In this document: positions 1-37,075 of the stretch, piece by piece
Numbering within the stretch: the first letter of the stretch is position 1
Layout: each line of letters opens with the position of its first letter
Assembly: GCA_028821995.1 (NCBI GenBank)
Contig: JAPKEQ010000002.1
Coordinates: 1-51,464, forward strand
Direction of reading: 5' to 3'
Length of the DNA: 51,464 bases
Source: Alphaproteobacteria bacterium
GTDB lineage: Bacteria > Pseudomonadota > Alphaproteobacteria > UBA2136 > JAPKEQ01
The notes under the pieces: model-generated
Seen by the model: only the letters and a program-made list of their open reading frames with translations
Databases searched by the model: none
Told to the model about the DNA's origin: nothing
Translations under genes and position numbers: made by a program

Positions 1-3
1 ACC

Positions 4-603
4 ATGTTTAAGCTGAACCAAAAAGGTGCCATGTTTGGCCTTGATGCAAGAGTTGCCCTTGCCATTATGGGTGCCATATCAATCATTGCTGGTTACTACA
101 GCATAAGCCGCATTGGCACTGCAAGAACAGCCGGACTTGTTAAGGAGCTTTCAAATTATGAAGAAGCCTTTCTGGGTTACCAGTCAGACATGGGCACATT
201 TTTGCTATTCACGCTAAATGGCGCCAGCAATGGCGTGCGCGACCTAGAAGTCCTATGGGATCAATCAGAAGTTCTTGCAGGCCTTAGAAAACGCTGGAGC
301 GGTCCTTATTATAAGTATAAATCATACACGCGTGACCATTCTGATTACGGTGAATTTTCTATTACCTATGGACAAGCTGATGCAAACCTATCTACGTGTA
401 CAAGTTCATCATCTTGCTATGCATGGCTTACACTTTCAGATGTCCCTCTTGAAACATGGATGGAAATCAATGAAGCTGTAGATGAGGCTTTTGGCTCTGA
501 TGCTGAAGCTTCTGCTGATGAAGAAGGAAAAGTCAGAGCTGATAGCCTTGGATCTGACCCTGTCACCCTCTATTACCGCGTACTTGAACGCCCTACAAAC
601 TAA
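4..603 (+). CDS. pilin/pseudopilin-like protein, paralog 1 (hypothetical)
   Basis: 199-aa ORF. The N-terminus MFKLNQKGAMFGLDARVALAIMGAISIIAGYY has a short basic leader, a Gly, then about 20 hydrophobic residues. Later blocks are RWSGPYY and C-x5-C followed by YAWLTL. It is clearly paralogous to the next two ORFs. Confidence 0.6.
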   Translation: MFKLNQKGAMFGLDARVALAIMGAISIIAGYYSISRIGTARTAGLVKELSNYEEAFLGYQSDMGTFLLFTLNGASNGVRDLEVLWDQSEVLAGLRKRWSGPYYKYKSYTRDHSDYGEFSITYGQADANLSTCTSSSSCYAWLTLSDVPLETWMEINEAVDEAFGSDAEASADEEGKVRADSLGSDPVTLYYRVLERPTN

Positions 604-619
604 TAACTGGAGCCTCCAC

Positions 620-1273
620 ATGATAAGACCTTTCCGCCCTCGCTTAACTCAAAAAGGCGCTATGTTTGGTCTTGATGCACGCCTTACTCTTATTATATTT
701 ACTTCTCTTAGCACCATTGCCGGCGCAAGTATCTTTTTTAACAAAACGAATACTCAGGCCTCAGTTATGGTTTCAGAACTTAAAGCCATACATACAGCTA
801 TAAAAAGAATGCAGGAAGATTTTGAGAATGACTTATACTCATCTCTTGATACGCCTAATTCTACCAATGCTACTTACATCCTGTTTGATGATACTGAAGT
901 TGATGCCGCCTTTCAAAGAGATTGGCACGGCCCTTACCTCGATGAGTTTATTCAACCTGGCACGCGCATTTACACAAGCCAAAATAATATTGCTGGCACA
1001 ACCCTCGTCAGCATCATGAAGCATGCCAAACAAGACGATATTGATAGCTCTGTGACGTGTAGCAACGCTGCCCCTTGCCATTACTGGATCAGAATTGAAA
1101 ATATTCCCATTAAACTTGCAGAAGCTGTTAACGCTAAAATTGATGGTACAAACGAAGTTGTACCTGACGAAGAAGGCCGCCTTCAGTGGATTGAAACATC
1201 TGCGGACATCACTAATATCTGGTACCTCACAGAACGCGCGCTAGATAACACAAACCCTTCTCTTGGTGAATAA
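620..1273 (+). CDS. pilin/pseudopilin-like protein, paralog 2 (hypothetical)
   Basis: The track ORF is 482..1273, but its first 46 codons overlap paralog 1. The internal ATG at 620 is preceded by GGAG (609-612) and gives MIRPFRPRLTQKGAMFGLDARLTLIIF..., matching the leaders of paralogs 1 and 3. It also carries DWHGPYL and C-x5-C followed by HYWIRI. Confidence 0.6.
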   Translation: MIRPFRPRLTQKGAMFGLDARLTLIIFTSLSTIAGASIFFNKTNTQASVMVSELKAIHTAIKRMQEDFENDLYSSLDTPNSTNATYILFDDTEVDAAFQRDWHGPYLDEFIQPGTRIYTSQNNIAGTTLVSIMKHAKQDDIDSSVTCSNAAPCHYWIRIENIPIKLAEAVNAKIDGTNEVVPDEEGRLQWIETSADITNIWYLTERALDNTNPSLGE

Positions 1274-1289
1274 GGAAAGACCTGAAAAC

Positions 1290-1889
1290 ATGATTTTAAA
1301 AAAACTACGTTCTCAAAAAGGTGCTGTCTTTGGGCTTGATGCTCGTATTGCACTCTCTATTCTGAGTGTTATTTCTGTTATGGCTGGCGGGTATTACTTC
1401 GCTAACTATTTCACAACAAGAGCCAAAGCCTTAAGCGAAGAATTTCGCCAATATGGCCTTGCGATTGATGGCTATCAATATGACATGAGAGAAGACCTTG
1501 TAGAGACAATTACGACCCCTAATGGCACAAATGAAATTACAGCTCTCTTTGATGATAGCGTCATTAAAGGGGCTTACCAAGGGCGCTGGAACGGTCCTTA
1601 TCTCGACCACGATGAACCTGCCGTACTTCAAAATGCATCCACAAGCACAATGACACTTATAAAAGCAGCCTCAGACAGTAGTGCTGCCACATGTACAGTC
1701 ATTACATCCTGCAATTACTGGATTAGACTCCAGCCCTTCCCGGAAACTTCTGTAATTCATTTAGATGAAATTCTTGATGGCGGCGCCGAAACAACACCAG
1801 AAGATGAAGGGGTCATTCGCTGGAATAACCACGCTGATCCTGGCATGGTTGACCTGTGGTACTCTGCTAGCCAAGCCTTTGCTCTGTAA
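1290..1889 (+). CDS. pilin/pseudopilin-like protein, paralog 3 (hypothetical)
   Basis: The track ORF 1263..1889 begins at a TTG. The ATG at 1290, with AAGGA upstream, gives MILKKLRSQKGAVFGLDARIALSILSVISVMAGGYYF. It also carries RWNGPYL and C-x5-C followed by NYWIRL. Confidence 0.6.
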   Translation: MILKKLRSQKGAVFGLDARIALSILSVISVMAGGYYFANYFTTRAKALSEEFRQYGLAIDGYQYDMREDLVETITTPNGTNEITALFDDSVIKGAYQGRWNGPYLDHDEPAVLQNASTSTMTLIKAASDSSAATCTVITSCNYWIRLQPFPETSVIHLDEILDGGAETTPEDEGVIRWNNHADPGMVDLWYSASQAFAL

Positions 1890-4453: not shown

Positions 4454-4936
4454 TTATTTCTCTCCCGTTGGTGCGTCTAACTGCTCAAGTCGAGGGATAT
4501 GTCTCCCCCCTTCAAATGGTGTATTTAAAACAATATCTAATAGCGCGCAGGCTTGCTCTACCGTAAGAACACGAGACCCCATACAAATAATATTTGCGTG
4601 ACTATGAAGCGCTGCCATTTCTGCTGTAAAGGCATCATGTATTAAAGTGGCACGAATCCCTTTATGACGGTTAGCACGCATACTAATACCAAGGCCAGTA
4701 CCGCAACAAGCAATGCCAAGCACATGAGTACTTGCATGCACATGGCTTACAACAGCATCAGCAGCCTCAGAATAAGTAAATGCTGTTTCAGCTTTTAATA
4801 TAGTGGCTTCATACCCAGTAGATTTTAAATACTCTGAAATCTCCTGAATAAAATCAGCAGCAGCGTGATCACTGGCAAGAATAATTTTTTTCGTCAAAAT
4901 AGTAAGAGCCTTTGGCTGTTTATTGTTATTGGGCAC
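4454..4936 (-). CDS. rpiB: ribose 5-phosphate isomerase B
   Basis: 160 aa. Contains ILASDHAA and CCGTGLGISMRANRHKGIRA. The gap to glyA is 3 nt. Confidence 0.9.
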   Translation of the reverse strand: MPNNNKQPKALTILTKKIILASDHAAADFIQEISEYLKSTGYEATILKAETAFTYSEAADAVVSHVHASTHVLGIACCGTGLGISMRANRHKGIRATLIHDAFTAEMAALHSHANIICMGSRVLTVEQACALLDIVLNTPFEGGRHIPRLEQLDAPTGEK

Positions 4937-4999
4937 TATTAAAACATATTTTTCATAAAAAAGAGAGCCAAAAGGCTCTCCTAAAGTATGTTTTAAGCT

Positions 5000-5932
5000 C
5001 TAAACGTATGTTTGCACATGCGCCACTTCAATTGAGCTTTCAGAAGCTTCCGAGGCATCATCTCCACCTGGAAGAATAACGTCAACTTCTGCCGCCTCTA
5101 AAGGCACATCTTCAGGCACAAGATCTTCCTGCGCCAGACTTCCAGCGACTTGTTGTACCGAAGCATCCTCTCCCCCCCCTTGGCCTGGAAGAGCAATTTC
5201 TGCCGTCTCTCCATCTCCTGGTAAGGCAAACTCTAAAGATTCAATATCAGCTTGCCCTGGCAGAGGAATTTCCTCACCCGCCCCTTCACCCGGAAGCGCT
5301 AAAGTAGCTTCAGATGATGATTGCCCTGGAAGGCTCACTTCTACAGAAGCTTGTGGTTCCACTGGGCGAGAGGCCTGAGCAGGAGCTTGTGGAGCTTCAC
5401 GCTGCTGGCTTACTTGAATATCTACATTATCACGCACATTCACACCATCTCGAGGCTGTGCCTGCACAGCTTCTTGCACAGAGACATTCCTGCTCTGCTG
5501 AATGACTGATTCAATATTTTGCTGCACGCGCTCCACCGTTCTGTTTTGTGGCGGCTGCTGCTCTGCGACCTTTTGCGCACGCTCAAACTGCTTAACAGCC
5601 TGATCAACAGGTGTAGGTTTAAATGAAACTTTTGATGTTTGCTCCATGTAACTTGCAACCTGTTGCACGCTAGAAAGAACGTTTTTACGTGTTGTCTCTG
5701 CTGCTTTTACAGTATCGAAAGTTGCGAGCTGGCGAATAAGTCCTGTTTTTTCTGTAGGGGATAAACGACGAGATTTAGCAATATTCATAAGCACACTTCC
5801 ACTATCACTTGGAATCGTGCGTAAACTAAAACCGTTTTTGGCAGAAGCATTTTCAACAGGCTGATTGGCCTGTTTTTGTGTGTTGTTGGCATTTGCGCTT
5901 ACAACACTTGAATTTCGTGTTACATCAAGCAT
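5000..5932 (-). CDS. acidic, Q-rich repeat protein (hypothetical)
   Basis: The track ORF is 5000..6016. The ATG at 5932 is preceded by AGGAAG and is the likelier start (MLDVTRNSS...). There is no signal peptide. The C-terminal third carries six LPG-centred acidic repeats. Confidence 0.6.
   Translation of the reverse strand: MLDVTRNSSVVSANANNTQKQANQPVENASAKNGFSLRTIPSDSGSVLMNIAKSRRLSPTEKTGLIRQLATFDTVKAAETTRKNVLSSVQQVASYMEQTSKVSFKPTPVDQAVKQFERAQKVAEQQPPQNRTVERVQQNIESVIQQSRNVSVQEAVQAQPRDGVNVRDNVDIQVSQQREAPQAPAQASRPVEPQASVEVSLPGQSSSEATLALPGEGAGEEIPLPGQADIESLEFALPGDGETAEIALPGQGGGEDASVQQVAGSLAQEDLVPEDVPLEAAEVDVILPGGDDASEASESSIEVAHVQTYV
5060..5335 (-). repeat. in-frame degenerate coding repeats (x-LPG-[QEDG]-acidic), six copies
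   Basis: Peptide repeats are SLPGQSSSE, ALPGEGAGEE, PLPGQADIES, ALPGDGETAE, ALPGQGGGED and ILPGGDDASE. On the plus strand they show as recurring cctggaag/cctggcag/cctggtaag. Confidence 0.6.
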
Positions 5933-6139
5933 GTTTTCGTCTTCCTGACTTCTCTTTTCCCCATCGAGCCTACTTAGCTCTCCTATTATTATGGTATGCA
6001 ATACAAACATTGTCAATATTTCCTGACAGGTATTTCTTTTTTATTACAACACCTTTCCCCAAGAGATGTACTTTTTTCTCGTGTAACAGGCCAAAATCCG
6101 CTAAAATAGAAAAAACAAAAACAAAACAAAGCTTTAAAA

Positions 6140-6670
6140 ATGCACCGTAGAGATTTCTATAGTTCACTTGCAAAAGTCAGCACTGATGTATTGAAAAACA
6201 ACACTTATTTTGGTGATATGGATGGTGTTTCTTATACCTTTGTTCCTGCTACAAAAGCGGATGCACCGACACTTATCGTAGTAAACATCAATTTACACAC
6301 ACCTATCTACACAGAGCACTTTAACCTTATTTTCCTTAAAAACTGGCCAAGTGTAGGTCATAACTTCTGGACAAAGGTATTTGCAAGGCATGACCTTATT
6401 TCTGAAGCGCACCTTTTAAGCTGGACAGTGCCATCACGTTTGCCATCATTTGTTAAAAAAACTATTCAGGTCAGCCGCGACGCACGCAAGCTCAGTAGCC
6501 GCGTAGACCGCCCTATTCTTATGATGCAGGACGGCGGAAACATGGGTGTTTCAACCCTTCCTGCGCCAGACATCCTGCCAGAAGGCAGCGATATTTTTGT
6601 AGGATTCATTAATGGACTTAACAAATCAGACAGTCCAGCCTATGCAAGAATGCAACAATTCCTAAACTAA
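6140..6670 (+). CDS. hypothetical protein
   Basis: 176-aa ORF, divergent from the repeat protein and followed by a strong terminator. I recognise no motif. The start is uncertain because there is no clear SD. Confidence 0.5.
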   Translation: MHRRDFYSSLAKVSTDVLKNNTYFGDMDGVSYTFVPATKADAPTLIVVNINLHTPIYTEHFNLIFLKNWPSVGHNFWTKVFARHDLISEAHLLSWTVPSRLPSFVKKTIQVSRDARKLSSRVDRPILMMQDGGNMGVSTLPAPDILPEGSDIFVGFINGLNKSDSPAYARMQQFLN

Positions 6671-18095: not shown

Positions 18096-18170
18096 GCGGG
18101 AATAGCTCAGTGGTAGAGCACAACCTTGCCAAGGTTGGGGTCGAGGGTTCGAATCCCTTTTCCCGCTCCA
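18096..18170 (+). tRNA. tRNA-Gly (anticodon GCC)
   Basis: GCGGGAATAGCTCAGTGGTAGAGCACAACCTTGCCAAGGTTGGGGTCGAGGGTTCGAATCCCTTTTCCCGCTCCA folds as a cloverleaf. The acceptor stem is GCGGGAA/TTCCCGC, the anticodon stem is CAACC/GGTTG, and the loop is TTGCCAA. The CCA end is encoded. Confidence 0.95.
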
Positions 18171-20005: not shown

Positions 20006-20081
20006 TGGTATCCCCAAGGGGAGTCGAACCCCTGTTTCCACCGTGAAAGGGTGGCGTCCTAGGCCTCTAGACGATGGGGAC
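20006..20081 (-). tRNA. tRNA-Glu (anticodon UUC)
   Basis: The reverse complement is GTCCCCATCGTCTAGAGGCCTAGGACGCCACCCTTTCACGGTGGAAACAGGGGTTCGACTCCCCTTGGGGATACCA. The anticodon loop is CTTTCAC. It closely resembles the E. coli tRNA-Glu sequence as I recall it. Confidence 0.93.
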
Positions 20082-33912: not shown

Positions 33913-35013
33913 TTATTCAGATGTCGCACAATCCTGATACAGTACCAGCATGACAGCAACGTTGTCCTGTTCTGTGATTTTCACCACATCAGCACACCCA
34001 TCAAAATCCACATCCATGGTATCGACCTTCTTGGCTTTAGCAAGCAGATCAACTTTTGGAAGGGCATTTTCAGAGCGTTTATAGGCCTCATATACGCCGT
34101 CACCTGAAAGGATGTAACGGGTTTTCATGACCTTGCCGCTGGCATAATACAGAACCATATCGCCGATGCCGTCACCGTTATAGTCTTCGGTATCAAAGTT
34201 GCGGATACTCATACCAGAGGTAAAGCCTTCCATGTAAACCTGCTCGTAAGCAAGCTGTCCTTGATCTGCCATATCAGCGCGCAGGCCAACGATGCCATTG
34301 GATGGGTTTTCCTGAGTATAAATGATGCGAACATCAATATCATACCCACTGTCCCAAGCCAAAATCACGTCATCAGTGCCATTGCCGTCCATGTCAGCCC
34401 AGTCCATTTTGAGCACATCATAGATGGACTCTTCATACGGATAGAATACACCTGTTGCCTGATGCATCATCACCGTCATAAAGACATCAAAGTCCTGAAA
34501 ATCATTGGCATTAGATGCCGCCGAAGTGCTCAGGTCATGTGCTGTAAACGTCATATCACCGTTATTGACGGCAATTGCAACGTCAAGCGTGTCATCGCCC
34601 CATTTTTCATTATACTGGGTGAAAACAATATCGGCATAACCGTCACCGTTTGTGTCAGCAGTATCCAGCTTGATAGCCGAAGAGAACCAGGAAAACGTAA
34701 TGGGTAGATTCACCCGTACAGGCGTTTCTTCAAAACCAAGGCGGCCGTCCATGTTCTTGCCAAAGAATACATCCATTTGATAGTCCTGGCCAAACCAGGC
34801 TTCATCATTGACCTGAACCATATCTTCAAAGCCATCGCCGTTAAAGTCAGCAAAGCCGCGTTTTTTGGAGTTACGCAGGCGTTCAGGGCCCATGGGCAGA
34901 ATTTCTGCCATTTGATTGCGAGGCTCATAAGCCTCTTTGTAACCTGCCTCATAGTCAGTGTTGCAGGCAGAAAGGGTCAAGGGCAAAGCGCCCAAGAGAA
35001 GAAATTTACGCAT
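33913..35013 (-). CDS. FG-GAP/VCBS-repeat lipoprotein
   Basis: The ATG at 35013 follows GGAGG. MRKFLLLGALPLTLSAC contains a lipobox. Five Ca-binding-type loops are present: DFNGDGFEDMV, DTNGDGYADIV, DMDGNGTDDVI, DYNGDGIGDMV and DVDFDGCADVV. Confidence 0.8.
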   Translation of the reverse strand: MRKFLLLGALPLTLSACNTDYEAGYKEAYEPRNQMAEILPMGPERLRNSKKRGFADFNGDGFEDMVQVNDEAWFGQDYQMDVFFGKNMDGRLGFEETPVRVNLPITFSWFSSAIKLDTADTNGDGYADIVFTQYNEKWGDDTLDVAIAVNNGDMTFTAHDLSTSAASNANDFQDFDVFMTVMMHQATGVFYPYEESIYDVLKMDWADMDGNGTDDVILAWDSGYDIDVRIIYTQENPSNGIVGLRADMADQGQLAYEQVYMEGFTSGMSIRNFDTEDYNGDGIGDMVLYYASGKVMKTRYILSGDGVYEAYKRSENALPKVDLLAKAKKVDTMDVDFDGCADVVKITEQDNVAVMLVLYQDCATSE

Positions 35014-35106
35014 AAGAACCTCCATGCGAAAGAAAAGAGAAAGAAGTTACATTCGTAACTCTTATATGGGGGTAAACAAGGTGATTTTCAAGGCTTTAAA
35101 AGAAAA

Positions 35107-35588: not shown

Positions 35589-36416
35589 TCACGATTTTAA
35601 AGTTTCAATTTTTTTATAAAGCTCCGCACCGCTCAGGGGCGTTTTTTCCTTAAGCATATCGCGAATTTTTTTCACCTTATGGCCATCACCAAGAAGAGAA
35701 AGAATTTCTGATTCTAGCCCTTCATCTGTAAGAAGGTGGCTTCCTTCTACTGCGCCATCAATCACCACAACAAATTCGCCAAGCACTTCTTTGCGATTCT
35801 CTAAAGATGCCTTCACCTCACTGAGCGCGCCTGTTAAATGCTCCTCATAAGTTTTGGTAAGCTCGCGCCCTACAAAGCAATTTCTGTCCCCAAGAAGGCG
35901 CTCAACATCTGCAAGCGTTTCTAAAATGCGGTGCGGCGCCTCGTAGATCACAAGGCTAAATGGCAGCTCTTTTACAGTCCCTACAAGCGTTTCTCTTGCC
36001 TTATTTTGACGAGGCAAAAATCCAAGGAAGGTAAAACGATCAGAAGAAAGCCCCGAAAGCGCGACACCCATTGTCAGCGCAGATGTGCCACCGGAGGCTT
36101 TCACATCAATACCCGCCGCACGCGCAGCACGTACAAGCAAAAACCCAGGGTCGCTAATACATGGCATGCCCGCATCGCTCACATAAGCAACGGTTTTGCC
36201 TTCCATGAGAAGATTTACAATCCCCTTTACGGATGAATGCTCATTATGTGCCCCGTGAGAAAGCAGCTTATCAGGCGTAATATCATGAATACCAAAAAGA
36301 CGAAGCGCTTTGCGTGTATCTTCTGCTGCAATCACATCCGCGGACTTTAAAATGTCTACAGCGTGGGGCGTCATGTCCCCTTCTCTGCCAATAGGTACGC
36401 CAACAAGCCAAAGCAT
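35589..36416 (-). CDS. rsmI: 16S rRNA (cytidine1402-2'-O)-methyltransferase
   Basis: The track ORF reaches 36482. The ATG at 36416 (MLWLVGVPIGREGDMTPHAVDILKSADVIAAEDTR) overlaps the upstream stop as TAATG. The fold is tetrapyrrole-methylase type and includes SDAGMPCISDPG. Confidence 0.88.
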   Translation of the reverse strand: MLWLVGVPIGREGDMTPHAVDILKSADVIAAEDTRKALRLFGIHDITPDKLLSHGAHNEHSSVKGIVNLLMEGKTVAYVSDAGMPCISDPGFLLVRAARAAGIDVKASGGTSALTMGVALSGLSSDRFTFLGFLPRQNKARETLVGTVKELPFSLVIYEAPHRILETLADVERLLGDRNCFVGRELTKTYEEHLTGALSEVKASLENRKEVLGEFVVVIDGAVEGSHLLTDEGLESEILSLLGDGHKVKKIRDMLKEKTPLSGAELYKKIETLKS

Positions 36417-37075
36417 TACAGTACCTCTACCTTCCAGTAAACTGTTGCGCGGCCGCTGCCTTTTGTAAGACGAGACGCCCAAGTACTGGCCACATCTACT
36501 TTTTCGCCAGAGGCAAAAAATTGATGCTCATGCCATTTAAAGCCGGCCTTTTCCCATAAAGGTTTTACATGGCTTTCAAGTGTTTCGGCTGTAATCTCTG
36601 GCAAGTGATTGGTGCGAAGTGTTTCACTATCTTGCAAAGCAAAAAGGTTAACGTAAACATCACCAATCGCTTTGTCTTTTAGGCATTTTTTAATACCGTT
36701 TAAAAAATCTTCATCTGCAAGAACAGTGACGTCAAGCAGGCTTCCCCATGGAAAATTAATGCTAAAAGTATCAGCAACTGGCTGGGTAAAATCTTCTGGC
36801 AGATCAAGCGCATTTGCGCACACAAAGCGCACATTAGACGCGCCGCCCTTAGCAGGTTTTTTAGCAGCTTTTGTAGCGCCAACAGCAAGGCTGTCCCGGT
36901 CTGCATCAAGGCCAATGACAAGCTCATTTTCTATTTTTCGGGCACGACGAAGAGCAAACATGCCGTCCCCTGTTCCAAAGTCAATATGAACTTTAGGGTG
37001 CGACTTGCACAATGAGAGAAAGTCGTCTGATGAAATATTCAGACGACTTTTCTTGCTTTCAATGATTTCAACCAA
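36416..37075 (-). CDS. class I SAM-dependent methyltransferase resembling the KamB/NpmA 16S rRNA (adenine1408-N1)-methyltransferase family
   Basis: 219 aa. The blocks VHIDFGTGDG, VIGLDAD, KAAKKPAKGGASNV, FSINFPWGSLL and STWASRL line up in order with the KamB and NpmA sequences as I recall them. Confidence 0.6.
   Translation of the reverse strand: MVEIIESKKSRLNISSDDFLSLCKSHPKVHIDFGTGDGMFALRRARKIENELVIGLDADRDSLAVGATKAAKKPAKGGASNVRFVCANALDLPEDFTQPVADTFSINFPWGSLLDVTVLADEDFLNGIKKCLKDKAIGDVYVNLFALQDSETLRTNHLPEITAETLESHVKPLWEKAGFKWHEHQFFASGEKVDVASTWASRLTKGSGRATVYWKVEVL

Follow-up and report, generated by a model that had tools for sequence, protein, structure and literature searches.

Type IVb pilins often begin with Met, Leu, or Val, Flp pilins are cleaved at a G|A junction, and in archaeal class III proteins, the junction is of the [KR]-G|A type, Glu5 is not strictly kept, and the peptidases lack methyltransferase activity. 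The peptidase PilD contains a Cys-motif N-terminal region that is associated with N-methylation, Ala is the single tolerated −1 substitution in the Pseudomonas aeruginosa prepilin, and DUF1559-type families of Planctomycetes and Verrucomicrobia carry the canonical GFTL[IV]E N_methyl motif together with unrelated C-terminal domains. Here, we describe three tandem open reading frames (ORF1–3) at the left end of a 51,464-nt stretch of an Alphaproteobacteria bacterium assembly (GCA_028821995.1, contig JAPKEQ010000002.1, positions 1–51,464; this whole stretch is referred to as the window). Their products are probably prepilin or pseudopilin subunits of a divergent type IV filament system and use its peptidase, ATPase, and platform. 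Judged by its components, this system appears to belong to the superfamily of type IV filaments, closest to the branch of type II secretion systems (T2SS) and type IV pili, and is distinct in its signal motif, its peptidase clade, its unrecognisable accessory proteins, its large paralog expansions, and a subunit orthogroup linked to bamE.

ORF1 (4–603, 199 aa), ORF2 (620–1273, 217 aa), and ORF3 (1290–1889, 199 aa) are located on the + strand with intergenic gaps of exactly 16 nt each, as stated in an earlier sequence-only reading of the window, which had also called them paralogs. Full-length alignment of the products gave 29–33% identity to ORF1 and 39 invariant columns, a mutual similarity far beyond chance. 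The start of ORF3 was placed at the ATG at 1290 and not at the TTG at 1263 (database protein P0001 is identical to the 199-aa product); ORF2 is preceded by a GGAG ribosome-binding site at 609–612, and its orthologues of 217–220 aa are called from the same position. For each of the three genes, position-specific orthologues were found in other assemblies, and the ratio of nonsynonymous to synonymous substitutions (dN/dS) against the orthologues on the contig of the closest representative (locus L007, ‘uncultured Magnetococcales bacterium SRR12480076_binner123’; 93% DNA identity to the window, 94% to ORF1) was 0.07 for ORF1, 0.19 for ORF2, and 0.17 for ORF3 (glyA for comparison, 0.014). Hence, ORF1–3 are real paralogous genes under purifying selection. 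The array had been thought to be cut by the window edge, but ORF1 is complete (the ATG at position 4 is the start in the orthologues), as is the three-gene array, and the element actually severed is the upstream bamE.

The motif QKGAMFGLDAR is encoded at 19–51 (+) in ORF1 (G8, A9, D14, R16; with a putative site for the A24 peptidase at G|A or A|M) and at 650–682 (+) in ORF2, and QKGAVFGLDAR at 1314–1346 (+) in ORF3. The other blocks listed in the earlier reading were recovered as well, i.e., L[WF]D[QD][ST], [RD]WxGPY[YL], a C-x5-C pair followed by x[AY]W[LI][TR][LI], and [DE][DE]EGx[VLI][RQ]. Two details had to be corrected: the helix-proximal block is present with the pattern [LF]-x2-[YI]-x6-[YM]-x2-D (x6 instead of x5, and F in ORF3), and the Asp is indeed located six residues past the Gly but is not directly followed by Arg, the order being D-A-R.

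Against Pfam and NCBIfam, ORF1–3 gave only noise, with no model matched even at E ≤ 10. With a profile built from ORF1–3, 146 proteins were found in a word-indexed protein database, and an exhaustive hidden Markov model (HMM) search using a 64-sequence family alignment returned 1,427 clusters (representatives at 50% identity) with E ≤ 1e-3, of which 500 had E ≤ 1e-30. These proteins are labelled as ‘hypothetical proteins’ by NCBI and, for a few of them, as ‘pseudopilin PulG’ by JGI; the family is large, unnamed, without a Pfam or NCBIfam model, and drawn wholly from MAGs of uncultured, Alphaproteobacteria-related bacteria. The junction was tabulated over 241 unique sequences, for which the search pattern required F and R and allowed Asp as one of three residues, and the consensus [SNT]-Q-[KR]-G-A-[ML]-F-G-L-D-A-R was near-invariant (G 98%, A 100%, M/L 94%; K or R before the Gly in 79%). 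It was preceded by a leader of 4–78 residues (median 12) and followed by about 20 hydrophobic residues (I-A-L-A-I-F-[GAS]-x-L-S-V-[IV]-[AS]-G). In the independent 64-sequence alignment, G8, A9, F11, G12, D14, and R16 were invariant, and W98, G100-P101-Y102, C132, C138, D160, and G175 were conserved in the globular part. All three window proteins have a short basic leader up to the Gly followed by the hydrophobic segment, and a variable leader ahead of an invariant junction points to class III (prepilin) signal behaviour. The motif, which the sequence-only reading had suggested tracing in relatives, heads this large family in nearly unchanged form, including the pilins of the machinery operons described below.

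The family resembles GspG/PulG of the T2SS in its basic leader ending in [QK]-[KR]-G, its hydrophobic N-terminal helix, an acidic residue that is aligned to Glu5 by hhalign, and a W-x-G-P-Y block where GspG has DPWG-x-Y. It differs in its junction, which is G-A-[ML]-F-G-L-D-A-R and not G-F-T-L-[IL]-E, being one residue longer, with Glu replaced by Asp and an invariant Arg two positions on, and in its length of 190–220 aa with a C-x5-C pair (E. coli GspG, 145 aa).

In many members from genomes with expanded copy numbers, the ORF opens with a degenerate KGAMFGLE[GA]R[VA]L[RK]K... sequence, and the genuine ...GAMFGLDARIALAIFG follows 35–45 residues after this copy (L038 5864–8052, L049 557–1276, L036 3977–4723, L084 1512–2234, P0104, and P0114), while about 12 of the top 150 representatives of the HMM search showed two matched stretches. 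Judging from its sequence, this ‘double leader’ may represent one long leader in which the recognition site is duplicated.

Genes of this leader class are linked to an ATPase, a platform, and a peptidase in the close relatives of the window, where the association was found inside operons, and not in the window itself. The second contig of the metagenome-assembled genome (MAG) containing L007 (locus L031) carries a series of genes in the same direction, the first of which are a cytochrome c gene (4685–5260, PF00034, 2.6e-9) and a short family member (198 aa). These are followed by a T2SSE ATPase (565 aa, PF00437 at 9e-68, with an MshEN domain), a T2SSF platform (364 aa, T2SSF at 2e-14 in two matched stretches, GspF at 1.8e-26), and three accessory proteins (386, 165, and 381 aa) without detectable homologues. 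Next are a minor pilin-like protein (252 aa, leader ...QKG-G-FSPFMFG, D-x-WG-x-x-[FY] block), a long family member (302 aa, leader ...QTGAVFGMDAR, DPWGNNW block), and a Peptidase_A24 (203 aa, 1e-11), and a J-domain protein stands last. The ATPase aligned over its full length to PilB (3.5e-73) and GspE (5.6e-70), far below the equivalog cut-offs, and to TadA at just 1.3e-3. The same gene order and sizes, with pilins bearing the same leader, were found in L042 (UBA6503), L059 (OFTM141), L087, L088, and L090, the last of which comes from the assembly series that also gave L004, the 68% relative. Partial operons were found in L045 (RI_95; through the long pilin, no A24 gene called, pilins with the same leader) and in L077 (MarineProteo1_Bin2; ATPase, platform, and first accessory gene only). 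The bamE-linked set and the operon were both present per MAG in L007/L031, L026/L042, L032/L045, and L023/L059. Hence, of the two alternatives offered by the sequence-only reading, a divergent prepilin class needing another peptidase specificity is the better supported, as the leader heads pilins in operons with T2SSE, T2SSF, and a short A24 peptidase.

Profiles of the 386-, 165-, and ~270-aa operon proteins, with which a secretin, PilM/N/O/P, or GspC/L/M was sought, matched nothing in PDB, Pfam, and NCBIfam. The 386-aa protein has one mid-protein transmembrane helix in the L031 copy and none in the L042 orthologue at the same threshold, and the 165-aa protein has an N-terminal transmembrane helix, a topology that fits a pilus or T2SS accessory role just loosely. 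The partner genes thus resemble those of GspG (GspE-like ATPase, GspF-like platform, A24 peptidase), but in contrast to the T2SS, the operon is without GspD secretin or recognisable GspC/L/M and GspH–K, its peptidase is without PF06750, and the window genes are tandem paralogs attached to bamE.

The cytochrome c gene was found directly upstream of a machinery-type short pilin in 13 loci (L031 4685–5260 and 12 others), and this pairing persists without an adjacent ATPase operon in, e.g., L030, L056, L060, L073, and L081. J-domain genes bracket the operon in L031 (3807–4604 and 14036–14581) and likewise in L042, L059, L087, L088, and L090, with a divergent TerB + DnaJ gene upstream and a Zn-finger-like + J-domain gene (~180–200 aa) directly past the A24 peptidase, which is unusual for pilus or T2SS operons.

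The three operon peptidases that were aligned keep both catalytic Asp motifs (...A-[LV]-D-[LV]... ahead of N-I-Y-x-x-P-L, along with G-x-G-D-[VI]-K), and the operon peptidase aligned to E. coli GspO at E = 1e-8 (GFGDVKLLAALGAW / GYGDFKLLAAAGAW). About 20 clusters, all of ~203 aa and with PF01478 only, make up the peptidase clade, which is parted by a score gap (109 to 68 bits) from PilD-type enzymes, which add PF06750. As the clade is without the Cys-motif N-terminal region, the short A24 enzyme would, by analogy with TadV or archaeal PibD, cleave without methylating. A short A24 peptidase without the methyltransferase-associated N-terminal domain is also found in Tad/Flp systems (TadV/CpaA), and the Gly-Ala junction of the family recalls the Flp site. 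In contrast, Flp pilins are ~50–80 aa long with G|xxxxEY, whereas the window proteins have 199–217 aa; the ATPase is PilB/GspE-like and not TadA, and there is a single GspF-like platform instead of a TadB/TadC pair. Archaeal archaellins, pilins, and bindosome proteins (PibD/FlaK) likewise comprise many paralogs per genome under one signal, but the hosts of the present family are bacterial, with an ATPase of PilB/GspE type and a platform of GspF type, both of them bacterial types.

In UBA12223, a stand-alone 116-aa Cys-motif N-terminal PilD-type domain (GSFLGCCFYRLP...CPNC...CRHC) without an A24 domain is encoded at L038 4182–4532, just upstream of a four-gene pilin array. This PF06750-like gene was considered as a general partner of the short peptidase and rejected, as it was found in this one locus only and was absent from the other fetched loci and the window.

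Two registers of cleavage may be considered. A cut after the 98%-conserved Gly would keep Gly at −1 and Lys/Arg at −2, with Ala at +1 and Asp at +6, whereas a cut after the 100%-conserved Ala would place Met/Leu at +1 and Asp at +5, ungapped with classical pilins. Met/Leu at +1 would be plausible in view of the N-termini of type IVb pilins. The A|M register corresponds to the ungapped HMM alignment to the type IVa pilin helix and puts the helix Gly (IALAIF-G) at the Gly14 position of type IVa pilins, with the PDB chain numbering being inferred. The hhalign alignment of the family profile to E. coli GspG placed Q-K-G-A-M-F-(G)-L-D onto Q-R-G-F-T-L-(-)-L-E, so that the Asp meets Glu5 and the Gly meets G−1. 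The sequence Q-[KR]-G-[GAN]-[FV] in the operon's minor pilin-like protein is compatible with both registers.

AlphaFold2 modelled full-length ORF1 with a mean predicted local distance difference test (pLDDT) of 91.3 and a predicted template modelling score (pTM) of 0.81 as a single 54-residue helix (residues 10–63), two short helices in the αβ-loop, and a four-stranded sheet (116–123, 139–147, 177–179, and 187–195) with an inserted helix; the globular part (residues 36–199) was modelled at a pLDDT of 93.2. Hence, the long N-terminal helix and β-sheet of the pilin fold, which had been named as a check on the pilin proposal, are predicted for ORF1. The purpose of the helix-truncated model was to expose any headgroup similarity that the long helix might hide. 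In Foldseek searches against PDB, the top ranks were type IVb pilins (9iuf, 1q5f, and 3fhu for the full-length model; 3hrv, 1q5f, and 3fhu for the truncated one), although none of these matches was significant. The type IVb pilins at these ranks (Vibrio cholerae TcpA, Salmonella Typhi PilS, and CofA/LngA-type pilins of enterotoxigenic E. coli) are similar in size to the family (~150–210 aa in the matched structures), and the extra helix between β-strands in the ORF1 model is a further point of resemblance. The family further differs from type IVb pilins in being without the canonical Glu5 context, in a short C-x5-C pair instead of a large D-region, and in its PilB/GspE- and GspF-like ATPase and platform with a different accessory gene set. 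According to the models, the topology is pilin-like and the headgroup has no close solved relative.

At the sequence level, the distant family members P0093 and P0084 just passed the gathering score of Pfam T2SSG (24.4 and 21.9 vs 21), and the long operon pilin aligned to the E. coli GspG core at E = 0.005 (DPWG..Y...GP..GT.D; LPADPWGNDY...SAGPDGEMGTEDDI). BLASTP of P0093 against E. coli GspG gave no match, and neither PF08334 T2SSG nor TIGR01710 was matched by ORF1–3. The best match among PDB sequences, Cry6Aa (E = 0.013), was judged to be spurious. Taken singly, these homology signals are weak, but together with the operon context they appear coherent.

Several results weigh against a pilin assignment. 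The canonical G/F-T-L-[IL]-E signature is missing, as had been noted from the sequence, and the canonical prepilin models PF07963 N_methyl and TIGR02532 were matched neither by ORF1–3 (E ≤ 10) nor by any of the 64 members. T2SSG was reached at E ≤ 0.01 by only 3 of the 64 members, and the hhalign comparison of the family profile with the single E. coli GspG had E = 0.007 at a probability of just 5%. With the family profile, nothing significant was found among PDB sequences (pilin N-helices at E ~0.3), and Foldseek with both models gave no significant match in PDB (E 0.14–1.7, probability ≤ 0.6, template modelling score 0.33–0.43), so that a significant resemblance to GspG, PilA, or ComGC, for which such a search had been suggested, was not obtained in either run. 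The machinery was seen in close relatives and not in the assembly of the window itself, with the two contigs joined by MAG binning, and the window genes are unlinked to it and adjoin bamE instead. Neither a secretin nor recognisable GspC/L/M or PilM–Q was found in the operon or within ±10 kb. The proposal of pilin-like proteins with a non-canonical class III-type leader is supported by the predicted helix-on-sheet topology, the T2SSG passes, and the leader match with the operon pilins.

In the proposed model, ORF1–3 would be co-transcribed with bamE, with the machinery being encoded at a separate locus. The N-terminal hydrophobic helix would insert each subunit into the inner membrane, and the dedicated short A24 aspartic peptidase would remove the variable basic leader at the G-A-[ML] junction, with the invariant Asp taking the role of the canonical Glu5. 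Once processed, the subunits would be pulled out of the membrane by the PilB/GspE-like ATPase and the GspF-like platform and assembled into a filament. This product may be a surface pilus or a periplasmic endopilus, as neither a secretin nor a recognisable alignment complex was found in the operon or within ±10 kb, and the output may be adhesion, secretion, or another function.

In close relatives, the gene directly upstream of ORF1 is bamE (PF04355 at 2e-13, lipobox, same strand), with a 3-nt gap between its stop codon and the ATG of ORF1. This arrangement was found for the orthologues P0003 (94%) and P0009 (68%), which are located on contigs of 149 kb and 1.26 Mb. Window position 1 is equivalent to position 9998 of L007, directly past the bamE stop codon, and window positions 1–3 (+) are the spacer between the bamE stop and the ORF1 ATG (L007 9995–10003, taa-acc-atg), which marks a bamE-ORF1-ORF2-ORF3 operon. 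A GGAG site was found inside the bamE 3′ end, and a promoter-like site upstream of bamE. Based on clustering of all ORFs of the fetched loci, bamE adjoins family genes in 22 loci, and the first gene past bamE is specifically the ORF1 orthologue in ~17 distinct MAGs (126–157 bits to ORF1 vs ~70–90 bits to ORF2 or ORF3), the members of this orthogroup always being located directly 3′ of bamE. In these ~17 MAGs, one or two ORF2/3-like genes follow on the 3′ side and then differing genes. The distance from the bamE stop to the start of the ORF1 orthologue ranges from short overlaps to ~200 nt, and amounts to only a few nt in the closest relatives as well as in several further MAGs.

To the left of bamE, divergent housekeeping genes are encoded (ubiquinol-cytochrome c chaperone, yceD, rpmF, fabH, HU, MerR, accBC, and RNase E). 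The sequence-only reading had located any filament machinery upstream of position 1, which was ruled out by the content of this region in close relatives, as the 10 kb to the left comprise bamE and housekeeping genes.

This neighbourhood bears on the strongest of the alternatives, in which ORF1–3, whether or not they are cleaved, are unpolymerised, inner-membrane-anchored, pilin-shaped periplasmic proteins that work together with BamE in building the outer membrane or the envelope. The succession of bamE and the ORF1 orthologue in ~17 divergent MAGs, with the genes further right varying, would be expected under such a role, as would the facts that bamE-linked genes never adjoin machinery, that the operon and the 10 kb on either side yielded no secretin, and that the headgroup is without a significant structural relative among solved pilins. 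However, GA[ML]FGLDAR, including the Asp that aligns to the assembly-critical Glu5, is equally invariant in bamE-linked and operon pilins, which makes a mere anchor hard to hold. Moreover, several genomes with bamE-linked copies also carry the operon with its dedicated peptidase, and the bamE synteny could be simple inherited gene order, so that we consider this explanation unlikely.

Quite unlikely, too, is that ORF1–3 are cargo or tip proteins, for which the class III signal and machinery would serve to display or secrete diverse C-terminal domains without a homopolymeric filament, in the manner of the archaeal bindosome (Bas) or of Planctomycetes proteins with a pilin signal. The massive expansion of a family with constant N-termini and variable C-terminal parts, the keeping of three non-redundant paralogs side by side, and the weak similarity of the 165-aa accessory protein to the bindosome protein BasF (1.3e-4) are compatible with display. 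Yet this BasF match is far below the cut-off of that family and hence not significant, the C-terminal domains are homologous family-wide (WxGPY, C-x5-C, D160, G175) and not unrelated cargo, and ~190–220 aa with the full pilin topology suit structural subunits. Finally, although canonical prepilin motif models are unmatched, it is highly improbable that ORF1–3 are ordinary Sec-exported or lipid-anchored periplasmic proteins with a coincidental pilin resemblance, as neither a lipobox nor an A-x-A site for signal peptidase I was read past the hydrophobic stretch, this stretch is modelled as the first half of a continuous 54-residue helix, the leader ends in Q-K-G as in prepilin leaders, and the motif is common to genes inside ATPase/platform/A24 operons.

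A scan of GTDB species representatives yielded 143 relatives, every one of them in uncultured MAGs. The host labels were Alphaproteobacteria, Proteobacteria, ‘Magnetococcales’, and MarineProteo1, with a few that look wrong. Four loci (L009, L016, L008, and L020) were deposited as ‘Pseudomonas fluorescens’, ‘Blastochloris viridis’, or ‘Pseudomonadaceae bacterium’; these names are probably taxonomic mislabels, as gene content and synteny agree with alphaproteobacteria-like MAGs. MarineProteo1 is a MAG-only lineage that is sister to core Alphaproteobacteria in complex I protein trees (PMC10411912). In the fetched loci, the copy number was usually 3–5 per genome, but UBA12223 has at least 47 ORFs with the motif and MarineProteo1_Bin2 has at least 29, both with tandem arrays of 2–4. 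Dozens of paralogs per genome with a conserved pilin-type N-terminus are also found in the Planctomycetes and Verrucomicrobia families, from which the present family differs in its motif. A link to the mitochondrial T2SS (miT2SS) is unsupported, as the miT2SS GspG proteins retain the canonical Glu+5 (PMC8134430).

The host lineages are uncultured and figure in debates on alphaproteobacterial and mitochondrial origins, and a literature search found no mention of the motif, of pili or such a system in this lineage, or of a bamE-pilin linkage. Pilin detectors based on G-F-T-L-I-E or N_methyl miss this family of at least 1,400 clusters with up to dozens of copies per genome. As its class III signal is a naturally occurring variant that comes with a short A24 peptidase of its own, the family allows direct tests of the specificity of prepilin peptidases and of the part played by residue 5. 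Given the unrecognisable accessory proteins and no evident secretin, the system may reveal another way in which type IV filaments are coupled to the envelope of Gram-negative cells, and the conserved bamE linkage provides a concrete testable hypothesis. A more far-reaching and rather doubtful proposal is an unrecognised bacterial type IV filament class restricted to basal or near-basal Alphaproteobacteria lineages known from MAGs only, with its own signal, a non-methylating A24 peptidase, three accessory proteins without detectable homologues, no secretin, and a functional coupling of the ancient ORF1 orthogroup to BamE; if true, this could be, e.g., a periplasmic endopilus that works with or depends on the β-barrel assembly machinery (BAM) and not on a classical secretin channel.

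The remainder of the window is otherwise housekeeping, and in agreement with the sequence-only reading, Pfam scans found no secretin, ATPase, platform, or peptidase gene within its 51 kb, nor any component of type II, type IV, or Tad systems. Its genes include nusB, nrdR, glyA, rpiB, aroA, glnA, gyrB, corA, an rpoH-like sigma factor, cobST, glycine cleavage genes, sucAB-lpd, miaA, degP, hflKC, folA, and thyA, and the only Rfam matches were two tRNA genes (18096–18167, +; 20009–20081, −). An NpmA-like 16S rRNA (adenine1408-N1) methyltransferase is encoded at 36416–37075 (−; PF24675, E = 1.4e-50), an enzyme type linked to aminoglycoside resistance that is found here in an environmental small-genome bacterium. 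The 370-aa product of 33913–35025 (−) matched an FG-GAP repeat and the mid/N-region of TcdB toxin and may be surface- or adhesin-like. Two genes at 5000–6016 (−, 338 aa) and 6140–6670 (+, 176 aa) match no Pfam family and are kept in the relatives L001 and L004; the 338-aa product is acidic and of low complexity, with recurring ‘LPG’ segments.

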